The translations under genes were made by a program, and so were the position numbers. The notes beneath the pieces are model-generated. The model made no database searches. It was not told where the DNA came from and worked only from the letters and a program-made list of their open reading frames with translations. This document shows, piece by piece, positions 5,395 to 61,870 of a stretch of DNA of 64,000 nucleotides; the first letter of the stretch is position 1; every line of letters starts with the position of its first letter. This stretch comes from an uncultured Lentisphaerota bacterium (lineage in GTDB: Bacteria > Verrucomicrobiota > Kiritimatiellia > CAIQIC01). Where the stretch lies: NCBI GenBank assembly GCA_903889245.1, contig CAISWQ010000079.1, positions 876-64,875 on the forward strand. Reading direction: 5' to 3'.

Positions 5395-5510
5395 AAGTTC
5401 TTGGGGGGGGGGTAAAAACCGGAAAGCCCCCAGGGGTTGGAAGATTTCGCTGCGACCTTGGCCAGGCCTTGGGGGAAAGGCGGAAAAATTTCCAAGCCTT
5501 GGGAACCAAT
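5395..5510. repeat. Cluster a of the TTTTCCAAG(S)CTTGGAAAA palindrome family: 4 degenerate copies, about 31-bp phasing
   Basis: Best copy aaatttccaagccttgggaacc at 5486-5507. Degenerate copies centred near 5466, 5433 and 5405. Lies between convergent gene ends. Confidence 0.6.
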
Positions 5511-5625
5511 GTCACACCAAGTTGCTGGCCACCGCAACCGGCTGCGGTGGATGGGGCACGCTTGCCGACCGGCTGGTAATCCCTTAAGCGAACCCCGCTG
5601 GTTGTTGTCGCAGGGGAAAAGCTGA

Positions 5626-6594
5626 TCAGCCGCGCCATGGGCGCGCGCGCGGGCCGAGCCGTTCGAGCACGTCGCGCGTGAGCTGCGCGTCCTCGGCGAG
5701 CTCGAAATCGAACATGCCGGCGAGGATGAAGTCCGCGCCGTGGCGGTAGCTATAGTCGAACGCGTCGCGCGGCGGAATCGCGCCGGCGGCCATGACCTTG
5801 TAGGCGATCCACGGCTGCGGCAGCGTGCCCATGAACGCGGCGGTCTCCTCCGGGCAGCTGCACCAGTAGCCGTGCGGTACTTCCTCGGTCGGGCCCTTGA
5901 GTTCGTCGGGCCGCGGCGCGGTAGGATAGTTGAGGTGGTGGAAGGTCTTCACCCAGTAGTCCACTCCGATCTTCGCGGCGACGCAGGCCTGCACGGTCTT
6001 CAGGTCGTGCGCGGCGATGCCGGTCGGCAGGCCGCTCGCCTTCATGATGTCCACATACTTGGCGATTGTGGCGACGTGGCCCTTCTGCACGAGCGGGTCG
6101 GCGGTCGCGCCGTGCAAATAGAGCGCATCCACGCCGAGGTTCACGAGTTCCTCCACCGCATGCTTGAAGTCCGGTTCCTTCCGGCTCTCGCTGGGGTCGG
6201 GCGCGACGAGCCAGTTCATCCTGCCGCCGCGCCGGTCGCGGAACTCGCGGAACAGCACCATCACCTTCTGGTCGTGATGCGTCATGAAGGTGTTGATGCC
6301 GTGCGCCTGCGCGAGCGCGAACGTCTCCAGGACTTTCGCGTCGGTGTTATACTGGCGCTCGAGGTTGTTGACGAAGTTCAGGCGGCGCGAGTGGACGTGG
6401 TGCGTGATGATGTTGGTACCGAGCAGCAACCGCGAGAGTTCGAGGTTGCCGATTTTTCCCGAGGGCAGCTTGCCGGCGGCGGCCGGCGCCGCCGCGGGAG
6501 CCGGGGCCTCCGCCCGCGCGCCCGTGACGCTCGCGGCCGCGGCGCCGAGCAGGGAACTGGCCAGAAAATTCCGGCGCGTACAGGTGGTCTTCAT
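5626..6594 (-). CDS. Tat-signal secreted hypothetical protein
   Basis: Internal start MKTTCTRRNFLASSLLGAAAASVTGARA is a twin-arginine signal. The upstream 55 codons of the track ORF are Arg/Pro-rich run-on. No recognisable family. Confidence 0.6.
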   Translation of the reverse strand: MKTTCTRRNFLASSLLGAAAASVTGARAEAPAPAAAPAAAGKLPSGKIGNLELSRLLLGTNIITHHVHSRRLNFVNNLERQYNTDAKVLETFALAQAHGINTFMTHHDQKVMVLFREFRDRRGGRMNWLVAPDPSESRKEPDFKHAVEELVNLGVDALYLHGATADPLVQKGHVATIAKYVDIMKASGLPTGIAAHDLKTVQACVAAKIGVDYWVKTFHHLNYPTAPRPDELKGPTEEVPHGYWCSCPEETAAFMGTLPQPWIAYKVMAAGAIPPRDAFDYSYRHGADFILAGMFDFELAEDAQLTRDVLERLGPRARPWRG

Positions 6595-61704: not shown

Positions 61705-61785
61705 GCCACGCTGGGTGGCCTTGAACCGGCCCACGACCTTGCGGTCGCGGGCCGGTTTGTTTTGGCGGGGTGGGCGCTCGGCCGG

Positions 61786-61870
61786 TTTCCCCAAGGCTCC
61801 TGAAAACCGGCCACGCGTTTTTCCAATCCCCGGGAAAAGCCCCCTGCACCCTGTCCAATCCTTGGGGAAC
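61786..61870. repeat. Palindrome cluster m: 3 degenerate copies
   Basis: ggtttccccaaggctcctgaaaacc / gtttttccaatccccgggaaaag / ctgtccaatccttggggaac. Confidence 0.6.

Follow-up and report, generated by a model that had tools for sequence, protein, structure and literature searches.

A Palindromic DNA Word in Three-Turn Arrays, Candidate Recognition Site of a Symmetric Protein in Kiritimatiellia

Introduction

What does a 19-bp palindrome do when it is repeated, at intervals of three helical turns, in the gaps between the genes of a bacterium? The question is raised by a 64,000-nt stretch of contig CAISWQ010000079.1 (assembly GCA_903889245.1, positions 876 to 64,875), referred to here as the window, from an uncultured Lentisphaerota bacterium placed in the Kiritimatiellia. 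An earlier reading of the same DNA, made from its letters alone (the sequence-only reading), had drawn attention to arrays of the palindrome TTTCCAA-GSC-TTGGAAA, here called the word. Only a few DNA words that are selected genome-wide are understood, namely Chi, the FtsK-orienting polar sequences (KOPS), and the DNA uptake sequence (DUS) and uptake signal sequence (USS), and the function of the highly iterated palindrome HIP1 of cyanobacteria has been open for decades. No description of the present motif, or of such repeats in Kiritimatiellota or Verrucomicrobia, was found in the searchable literature. On balance, the palindrome is probably a recognition word read on double-stranded DNA by a dimeric, sequence-specific protein, with the doublet or array at 31-32 bp as the oligomer unit, and kept chromosome-wide.

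Results

Palindrome Arrays in the Window

The exact 19-mer, TTTTCCAAGSCTTGGAAAA, was found four times in the window and in none of 100 dinucleotide-preserving shuffles, and 24 matches were recovered with ≤3 mismatches, against a chance expectation of 0.01. A search with the arms only (TTTCCAA-N3-TTGGAAA, ≤2 mismatches) returned 31 copies, and a looser 17-mer search, which picks up degenerate neighbours too, returned about 38. In total, the window holds 34 copies of TTTCCAA-GSC-TTGGAAA together with a few relics, in 13 arrays of one to four copies and at a density of about one per 2 kb, in good agreement with the approximately 35 copies in 13 clusters previously counted. The arrays are real and far above chance. 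The earlier description of the palindrome as perfect was overstated, both 7-nt arms being exact in 14 copies and the full 19-mer only in the four mentioned. Centre-to-centre spacing was 31 bp in 12 cases, 32 bp in five, 30 bp in two and 33 bp in one. The window has a G+C content of about 66%, within which the arrays form local A+T-rich islands. Four to five of them hold four copies. Tandem Repeats Finder detected one of the 13 and missed the other 12 because their spacers are unrelated to one another. The arrays are listed below; none has a strand.

5431-5506, no strand: degenerate array in the gap where two convergent genes end (5316 and 5626), with a single good copy (5488-5506) and two decayed copies about 29 and 60 bp upstream
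7531-7610, no strand: three-copy array (centres 7540, 7571, 7601) filling the whole gap from the pilin-like gene end at 7531 to the end of a minus-strand open reading frame (ORF) at 7611
11020-11069, no strand: doublet (centres 11029, 11060) set between a pair of minus-strand genes and lying 27 bp upstream of a gene start (10993)
13285-13334, no strand: doublet (centres 13294, 13325) flanked by two minus-strand genes
17036-17148, no strand: four-copy array (centres 17045, 17076, 17108, 17139) in the divergent gap between a response-regulator operon and an extracytoplasmic function (ECF) sigma region
23213-23263, no strand: doublet (centres 23222, 23254) between the VWA gene end at 22742 and the cystatin-like gene start at 23331
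24669-24781, no strand: four-copy array (centres 24678, 24710, 24741, 24772) between the DUF6794 and GxxExxY genes
32100-32148, no strand: doublet (centres 32109, 32139) that takes up the 65-bp gap from the stop of the 2183-aa gene at 32098 to the NAGPA gene start at 32164
33019-33069, no strand: doublet (centres 33028, 33060) that follows the NAGPA stop (33009) and precedes the conserved mreB promoter (TTGACG at 33121) by about 60 bp
40892-41005, no strand: four-copy array (centres 40901, 40934, 40965, 40996) between the convergent SLT and AP_endonuc_2 genes, orthologous to L094 18690-18800 and L097 14110-14190
44553-44602, no strand: doublet (centres 44562, 44593) between convergent AraC-type and thioesterase genes
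50052-50164, no strand: four-copy array (centres 50061, 50092, 50124, 50155) between an amidohydrolase gene and the 3797-aa gene
61819-61869, no strand: degenerate doublet (centres 61828, 61860) between the end of the 3797-aa gene and a convergent gene
548-598, no strand: weak pair (centres 557, 589) of degenerate copies with 3-4 mismatches, close to the ftsK start, beyond the range of the sequence-only reading and of uncertain membership

Symmetry of the Word and Phasing of Its Copies

A 17-mer scan of one genome per species gave at least 81 loci, and further loci were fetched via MreB. The relatives are represented by fragments of metagenome-assembled genomes (MAGs) that were picked for containing the word, so that densities in them are biased upwards; the window is unaffected. 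The anatomy of the word was established from 271 pooled copies forming 122 adjacent pairs. Positions -7 to -2 and +2 to +8 were 92-100% conserved, the CC and GG dinucleotides at ≥99%, and the word was flanked by T-tracts on the left and A-tracts on the right. At the central position 140 copies had G and 122 had C, A or T being very rare; a G:C pair facing either way occupies the centre, as a two-fold symmetric reader of the duplex would see it. Half-sites were seldom found alone. The two most conserved dinucleotides, CC and GG, lie 9 bp apart, a separation that in our estimation suits a dimer of helix-turn-helix type. Among the approximately 130 copies deviating at arm positions 2-8, zero to one compensatory second changes were seen, so that it is the sequence and not the helix that is kept.

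Of the 122 adjacent pairs, 55 were spaced at 31 bp and 63 at 32 bp, with a mean of 31.5 bp, which is three turns of B-DNA; the 31-32 bp phasing at three helical turns reported earlier was thus borne out both in the window and in the pool. The arrays of this clade are of the 31/32-bp type, and a spacing of 21 or 42 bp was never seen in them. Lineages nevertheless differ in dialect, with 31-bp to 32-bp ratios of 12:5 in the window, 2:25 in DP16D_bin.41 and 12:12 in Loclat. The pooled copies comprised 60 singles, 70 doublets, eight triplets, eight four-copy arrays and three five-copy arrays. According to a position-frequency table of 122 units, the spacer of 12-13 nt has no consensus and is G+C-rich like the genome, with only a weak excess of spacer families (a few GGAACCGGT-like spacers). 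Neighbouring spacers within an array shared 4.48 matches, compared with 4.55 for random pairs (p = 0.62), and recent tandem duplication was rejected as the origin of the arrays, since their spacers are no more alike than random pairs.

Copies inside Genes

In lower-GC MAGs labelled as members of the Planctomycetes-Verrucomicrobia-Chlamydiae (PVC) group, the same arms were found at 0.25-1 copy per kb, mostly as singles and with a free centre triplet (Pontiellaceae GMC3, loci L033 and L063; binchicken_co47_190, L034 and L064; SJ551, L055; MAG23, L065). Most of the copies examined in these genomes lie inside genes with clear Pfam domains, including those for an MMPL transporter, a radical SAM protein, a GlgX-type debranching enzyme and PrmC, and all three reading frames are used, encoding FPxxGK, SKxWK or FQxLE. 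The segments 'KFQPLEN' and 'DFRGLEI' of PrmC align to Escherichia coli HemK, the structure of which has been solved, and 'LFQALEK' of GlgX aligns to 'FFDLVQQ' of a solved homologue, in each case with no insertion at the site.

Array-type genomes were found to carry occasional whole 32-bp doublets inside genes. The doublet in a DUF5696-like protein of DP16D_bin.41 encodes ENFQALEKRRIQFSYVWK, where a 40%-identical, motif-free homologue reads DRFAVVGPRLFRVTYAWR, and that in NamZ encodes FQGLENADCDFSKVWK, which aligns to FQMFAARWVEAEKLAD in PDB 4k05; neither alignment has a gap across the doublet. The same doublet arrangement was seen in a SufB/D protein (Loclat_bin-07389) and in a radical SAM protein (Pontiellaceae MAG). 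Across the four genes, the third-position G+C of the doublet codons was 0.44-0.56, compared with 0.62-0.83 in the remainder of the gene. Taken together, the gap-free alignments and the low third-position G+C indicate that both the word and the phased pair were made by point substitutions against codon preference. The word thus appears, from these alignments, to be a DNA-level target of selection or drive and not an inserted element.

As a separate observation, the four doublet-bearing proteins, which come from three MAGs (NamZ, L029 6645-6695; DUF5696-like, L093 4991-5041; SufB/D, L072 5129-5179; radical SAM, L063 5337-5387), share the peptide FQxLE-x6-(F/I)S(K/Y)xWK because the 32-bp DNA doublet is read in the same frame combination in each gene. 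This recurrent peptide is a trap for motif or domain discovery.

Distribution among Relatives and Decay in Place

The window MreB (33200-34234) has a 100% identical counterpart on metagenome contigs and is 87-99% identical to proteins labelled Kiritimatiellia, Kiritimatiellaeota, 'Verrucomicrobia bacterium' and 'Lentisphaerae bacterium'. A search of related genomes for the consensus, as proposed with the original description, showed that the word is present with 31/32-bp spacing in at least ten other MAGs, and among the matches listed most belong to a few MAGs that carry PVC-type labels. Where the G+C content of the MAG is 58-67%, almost every copy has a partner at 31 or 32 bp. These array-type genomes are DP16D_bin.41, Loclat_bin-07389, LJ_bin-4696, R1_Bin_METABAT_307_1, SRR8868559_bin.156, N1_Bin_136 and binchicken_co261_17, to which loci L090, L094 and L097 may be added. 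The earlier label 'genome-saturating' goes beyond what one window can show, but related contigs hold 0.3-0.8 copies per kb, a figure raised by their selection for the word. Among the matches listed, those in Flavobacterium, Legionella, archaea and viral contigs consist of the seed copy only, as chance predicts in 596 Gb. The viral contigs gave nine exact matches, all isolated singles with no additional motif-like copy on the flanks, and a phage origin was rejected on this basis.

The word is lost or eroded in some of the closest relatives. One good copy was found in 9.7 kb of L087 (MreB 97% identical), L091 and L092 (MreB 98%) have no copy and only decayed half-sites (TCCAAG...) in intergenic DNA, and neither copies nor half-sites were seen in the examined loci of L085 (MreB 92%) and L088 (88%). 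The more distant Kiritimatiellia looked at hold no copy. In the orthologous gap between MgtC and mreB, L087 has a copy with a degenerate neighbour 31 bp off, and in L091 two half-sites are left, each with a mutated right arm and with an insertion between them, indicating decay in place and not excision. From these comparisons, the word is patchy among close relatives and seems to need upkeep. The copies in genes and this patchiness, both missed by the sequence-only reading, make a regulator site between genes a less fitting interpretation and a chromosome-wide tag a better one.

Constraint on an Orthologous Array

The window and L094 share the four-copy array that follows the SLT gene, and L097 has it as far as its contig reaches, with copy number and phase kept. 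Between the window and L094, the arms are 82% and the centres 75% identical, and the spacers are 38% identical without gaps, where random sequence rich in G+C would give about 30%. In five flanking genes, 6-20% of the third codon positions differ between the same two sequences, and nearby unconstrained intergenic DNA is unalignable. In the closer pair, L094 and L097, one unit (the centre of copy 2 and spacer 2) has been exchanged as a whole, while the adjoining units show single-base differences. This hints that units may occasionally be converted or replaced.

Location of the Arrays Relative to Genes and Promoters

The gene map of the window was built from third-position GC, Pfam/NCBIfam matches and the gene calls of an identical public contig (ENA ERZ18644181). 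In the pooled loci outside the window gene contexts come from a rough gene predictor, and some of its 'inside gene' calls are over-extended starts. All window copies are non-coding (0/31 arms-only copies in genes). Non-coding DNA amounts to about 4.7 kb, or about 7% of the window, and arrays take up roughly one quarter of this non-coding part. The earlier statement that nearly every intergenic region is occupied proved too strong: 13 of about 23 gaps of ≥50 bp hold arrays, several divergent gaps have none, and none was found in the tightly packed mreB-mreC-mreD-PBP2-rodA-RNase G-SLT operon (33200-40889).

Many window arrays begin 0-10 nt past stop codons, and all five convergent gaps are occupied. 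Arrays touch the stop codon at 7531, and begin two bases past that at 32098 and three bases past that at 40889; the earlier claim that arrays abut stop codons therefore holds, exactly in the case of 7531 and within two bases at 32098. Others lie only 16-27 bp upstream of start codons (10993, 13258, 32164). In the pooled loci, 85 copies were found in 112 tandem gaps, 31 in 32 convergent gaps and 31 in 31 divergent gaps by the rough predictor, consistent with the previous finding that arrays occur regardless of gene orientation. A preference for gene 3' ends, which the five occupied convergent gaps of the window had suggested, was absent in the pooled loci and was rejected.

A conserved mreB promoter, TTGACG-N17/18-CACTAT, follows downstream of the array, the distance varying from about 45 to 80 bp, and is conserved across lineages despite differing upstream neighbour genes. 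Given this variable distance, the array is neither the promoter nor a fixed operator; the possibility that arrays act as promoters was rejected, as the canonical TTGACG/CACTAT promoter lies downstream and a consensus scan found no promoter within the arrays.

Further observations were made at this site. The mreB promoter and 5' leader are clade-conserved (window 33110-33200; L094, L097, L093, L090, L087, L091), the upstream gene differs in five lineages, and four of these five carry an array upstream of the promoter, so that synteny breakpoints may coincide with arrays. At about 5850-5950 of L097, a 14-nt unit, CTCGCCCCyCGACA, lies between array and mreB promoter in more tandem copies than in L094, amounting to a 56-nt insertion in L097. 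Gene callers were found to run through arrays: a 58-aa ORF of L094 is purely array, and a GH106 gene start lies inside an array (675-851, 9758-9821). Array read-through may likewise be the cause of a 53-residue N-terminal extension in a 397-aa 'MreB' (protein P0003). Two giant genes, 25547-32098 (2183 aa, with no Pfam match) and 50311-61704 (3797 aa), make up 28% of the window and hold no copy.

Discussion

A Protein That Would Read the Word on Duplex DNA

The mechanism that we favour is that a two-fold symmetric, presumably dimeric, protein of this Kiritimatiellia clade would read TTTCCAA-N3-TTGGAAA on the duplex, the word of the window lineage having the centre GSC and T/A-tract flanks. Words 31-32 bp apart would place two dimers on the same face of the helix, where they could touch, and the working unit would be a doublet or an array of three to five, forming an oligomer of fixed geometry. 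Selection, or a drive linked to the protein, would hold the word at a density of about 0.3-1 copy per kb, and the word would be gained and lost by point mutation in place and not by insertion. In a high-GC lineage an AT-rich word is costly in genes, so copies would pile up in scarce neutral DNA, and arrays would consequently extend from one stop codon to the next or as far as a promoter. The sequence-only reading had likewise proposed a phased array for a dimeric DNA-binding protein; the arms, symmetry, phase and orthologous array all fit this proposal, and the protein itself is what we infer from them.

Phased regulator arrays have precedents in Lrp/AsnC-type sites about three turns apart, NtrC enhancer pairs at 32 bp, SeqA on GATC pairs, and repeats of the sopC/parS type. 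These systems share palindromic dimer sites at integral turns at which bound dimers touch, and by analogy array sizes of two to four would suit a tetramer to octamer. However, they concern a few loci or a 4-bp word, whereas the Kiritimatiellia word is long, is spread chromosome-wide and occurs in the genes of relatives too, and it is unlike the Lrp, NtrC or parS consensus.

As to the purpose of such a tag, we are divided about evenly between architecture or insulation at the borders of transcription units and an uptake-type tag of self DNA. Architecture or insulation, which we regard as about equally likely as the latter, is suggested by the positions of the arrays, but the word is dispensable in sister species and lies within coding DNA in relatives.

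Several points weigh against a protein of this kind. No candidate reader was found among the window ORFs, either by Pfam/NCBIfam scans, which covered all but the 3797-aa gene, or by inspection of the ORFs without known function. A tightly bound array 16-27 bp upstream of starts, or between co-transcribed genes, would obstruct RNA polymerase, and sister species should not be able to do without a core protein of chromosome architecture. Arms kept alike by concerted evolution, with gene conversion among the arrays, could look as if they were under purifying selection, and only one set of orthologous arrays at a useful evolutionary distance was available. A transition within a palindrome produces G.U on one strand and A.C on the other. 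In co-directional gaps of the window, arm transitions on the transcribed strand were ten G.U and one A.C, with seven of the ten coming from one array and the bias gone in the pooled loci, and the centres of neighbouring copies were complementary in 69 cases and non-complementary in 49, a weak excess (p = 0.09).

A Possible Uptake-Signal-Like Tag of Self DNA

A special case of the protein-reading model, and one that we think rather unlikely, is a self tag of the DUS/USS type, in which a dimeric or oligomeric competence receptor would prefer fragments bearing the word, molecular drive through biased uptake and recombination, in place of organismal selection, would spread it by point mutation to all tolerant positions until neutral DNA was saturated, and it would decay once competence was lost. 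DUS and USS show statistics of this sort, and USS has helically phased flanks. The likeness to DUS of Neisseria and USS of Pasteurellaceae, whose properties are taken here from general knowledge, extends to a word of ≥10 bases at about one per kb in genes and gaps, point mutation at tolerant positions in several frames, lineage dialects, gene-end enrichment, and absence from unrelated DNA. The Kiritimatiellia data agree in the density of 0.3-1 copy per kb, the substitution origin at tolerant protein positions in all three frames, the lineage dialects in centre triplet and spacing, the loss or decay in close sister lineages, the lack of motif-like flank copies around the nine isolated viral matches, and the complete filling of neutral gaps by arrays.

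In other respects, the two differ. The Kiritimatiellia word is a true palindrome, found in doublets and arrays at exactly three turns, is excluded from genes in the window lineage and belongs to a PVC phylum, whereas we know of no uptake signal that is palindromic or set in three-turn arrays, so that such arrays are foreign to the known systems. A word at about one per kb that enters coding DNA by substitution was seen in the lower-GC relatives and occasionally in array-type relatives, compared with 0/31 coding copies in the window. We also know of no competence in the Kiritimatiellota; the pilin-like gene of the window (6683-7531) is no evidence for it. Finally, the giant genes leave stretches of 6.5 and 11.4 kb without a copy, where a drive acting on every fragment should leave none.

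The Alternative of a Miniature Mobile Element

A selfish miniature element copied by a transposase, of the repetitive extragenic palindrome (REP/REPIN), miniature inverted-repeat transposable element (MITE) or Rickettsia palindromic element (RPE) type, with arrays growing in 31-bp steps, is improbable. The word is extragenic, multi-copy, palindromic and patchy among relatives, as such an element would be, a doublet can fold into a 19-bp hairpin in the manner of a REPIN, and one unit of the orthologous array looks swapped. REPs within genes are also known (PMC3733652), which provides a precedent for coding copies. The likeness to REPs, bacterial interspersed mosaic elements (BIMEs) and REPINs includes extragenic palindromes in hundreds of copies, arranged as singles, doublets and regular clusters at gene ends or inside operons, in which doublets can form hairpins.

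However, coding copies and doublets show no insertion relative to homologues, and the sites in PrmC, GlgX, the DUF5696-like protein and NamZ were all free of insertion when compared with motif-free homologues. REPs are defined by a conserved tetranucleotide, GTAG or CGTC, that sits at one of the two palindrome ends (PMC3733652), and neither tetranucleotide, nor any conserved base beyond the T/A tracts, was found in the 122-unit table; there is thus no tag and no conserved flank. The word is perfect and not bulged, has no conserved linkers and is not inserted in genes, unlike REPs and BIMEs. The BIME units alternate in orientation and are joined by conserved linker motifs, while here the units are symmetric and the spacers lack consensus, families and within-array similarity, being unrelated even within one array. 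No gene for a RAYT (a tyrosine transposase of IS200/IS605 type) was found in the window by Pfam, and none was seen in the other DNA examined. The loss in L091 is decay in place with no excision, the translation of an array-bracketed ORF in L054 showed an N-terminal hydrophobic stretch and no evident transposase features (no family search was run on it), and viral contigs hold no array-like clusters. A REPIN-like hairpin between neighbouring copies, judged by the complementarity of their centre bases, the only free ones, was also rejected in view of the weak excess given above. The sequence-only reading had allowed for a mobile element duplicating in 31-bp steps, which is contradicted by the coding copies without insertion and by the unlikeness of neighbouring spacers; its view that the word is no classic REP/BIME is upheld by the missing GTAG/CGTC tag, linkers and insertion origin.

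The Alternative of an Element Acting in RNA

It is more doubtful still that the arrays act in RNA, as terminators, as hairpins stabilising 3' ends, or as RNase III sites formed by pairing of neighbouring copies. In favour of this, many arrays lie 0-10 nt past stops and occupy all five convergent gaps of the window, canonical intrinsic terminators are at chance level in 22-42 kb (16 found, 14.5 expected), the RNA of a doublet folds to -34.7 kcal/mol with a 19-bp stem (z = -5.6), and the window shows the ten-to-one excess of G.U over A.C transitions on the transcribed strand. This wobble asymmetry disappeared in the pooled loci, where the corresponding counts were 16:13 (p = 0.71), and it was rejected as a signal. 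Furthermore, the arms do not covary, divergent gaps upstream of promoters are equally populated (31 copies in 31 gaps), and copies inside genes would give long double-stranded RNA in coding regions. The U-run is paired in the 5' half of the stem and A's follow the hairpin, which is the reverse of an intrinsic terminator, where a G+C-rich hairpin has a free U-run behind it. An Rfam scan of the window gave no match at the gathering score, and no Rfam family therefore supports an RNA role. The dismissal of a terminator by the sequence-only reading stands, given an A/U-rich stem with its U's paired 5' and A's following, and arrays in divergent gaps too.

Passive Bias and Other Known Repeats

Least likely of all is that the word is a passive by-product of sequence-specific repair, methylation or mutation bias, an idea often raised for HIP1, with no reader protein, since, palindromic, lineage-specific and hyper-abundant in coding and non-coding DNA of lower-GC relatives as it is, its 14 specified bases and its lineage-varying pairing at 31/32 bp exceed the information of known repair or methylation specificities, and the window lineage has no coding copy at all.

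HIP1 (GCGATCGC) is similar in being a palindrome that arises by substitution and reaches very high numbers within a single clade, in coding as well as non-coding DNA, over which it is evenly spread. It is, however, 8 bp long and of unrelated sequence, compared with 14-17 specified bases clustered in phased arrays in the present case, and we know of no report of HIP1 in helically phased arrays or confined to intergenic DNA. CRISPR loci have repeats that measure 23-47 bp and spacers that measure 21-72 bp, in long arrays with cas genes next to them. The Kiritimatiellia arrays resemble them in having short palindromic repeats and regular, unrelated spacers of fixed length, but the repeat is 19 bp, the spacer 12-13 bp, and there are one to five units per locus at 13 loci in 64 kb, or dozens per 100 kb. 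The domain scans of the window, the 3797-aa gene being outside them, showed no cas domain. The closest analogues of the word are DUS/USS, HIP1 and REP/BIME. On these properties the word was assigned neither to CRISPR, HIP1, REP/BIME or MITE/RPE, nor to intrinsic terminators or a known RNA family.

Implications of a Chromosome-Wide Word

We regard the word as a clade-wide selected genomic word, with a fair chance that the system behind it is new. A more specific proposal, which is tentative and on the whole unlikely, is that the Kiritimatiellota possess a previously unknown chromosome-tagging system in which an oligomeric receptor would read three-turn doublets, and a tag spread by molecular drive (biased uptake or conversion) would fill neutral DNA and overwrite codons. 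If this were true, it would be the first uptake-signal-like system outside the Proteobacteria, with an architecture of palindromic, phased arrays unlike that of DUS/USS. Should the tag mark self DNA for uptake or repair, it would bear on gene-flow barriers in an abundant and poorly known phylum of polysaccharide degraders; should it be architectural, it would represent a sequence-defined insulator at the borders of transcription units.

The word is long enough for a single specific reader, and its doublet geometry with lineage-specific spacing is a clue to that reader. The sister lineages in which it has decayed are natural controls, and the reader could be found by phyletic profiling and DNA affinity purification sequencing (DAP-seq). 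The arrays also matter for annotation, as they yield spurious ORFs, false N-terminal extensions and a recurrent FQxLE...SKxWK peptide in unrelated proteins.

Other Features of the Locus and Related Repeats

The GxxExxY / PD-(D/E)XK_3 gene (24829-25227) is flanked by 36-nt inverted repeats at 24788-24823 and 25271-25306, the left of which begins 7 nt after the four-copy palindrome array. The right hairpin unit of about 80 nt is repeated 151 bp further on (25377-25453), and the arrangement was found only in loci of the same genome. The gene with its inverted repeats has the look of a small mobile cassette. Also noted in the window were small accessory genes, of kinds frequently present in several copies, namely a four-helix-bundle gene (TIGR02436) at 46442-46798 and a DUF433/DUF5615 (PIN-like) pair at 47932-48736.

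Two further repeat families were encountered in the scan. The Bacteroidales MAGs RUG14526 and RGIG4863 (L009, L018, L043, L057, L066, L071, L075) carry, in another phylum, a different family, in which four tandem 19-bp palindromes of the form ATTTCnnnGSCnnnGAAAT are spaced at exactly 21 bp (two turns). These arrays are bounded by the inverted repeats GGGAACAAAAC and GTTTTGTTCC and occur at several loci per genome, and one copy per array happens to coincide with the Kiritimatiellia word. At positions 1-400 of L058 (ERR14722427_binner23_Refined_58, 51% G+C), nine tandem units of 41-43 bp (four turns) were found, each consisting of TTTCCAAGnGTTGGAAAAC and a conserved spacer. Judged by that conserved spacer, the L058 repeat appears to be a true recent tandem duplication, unlike the arrays of the window.

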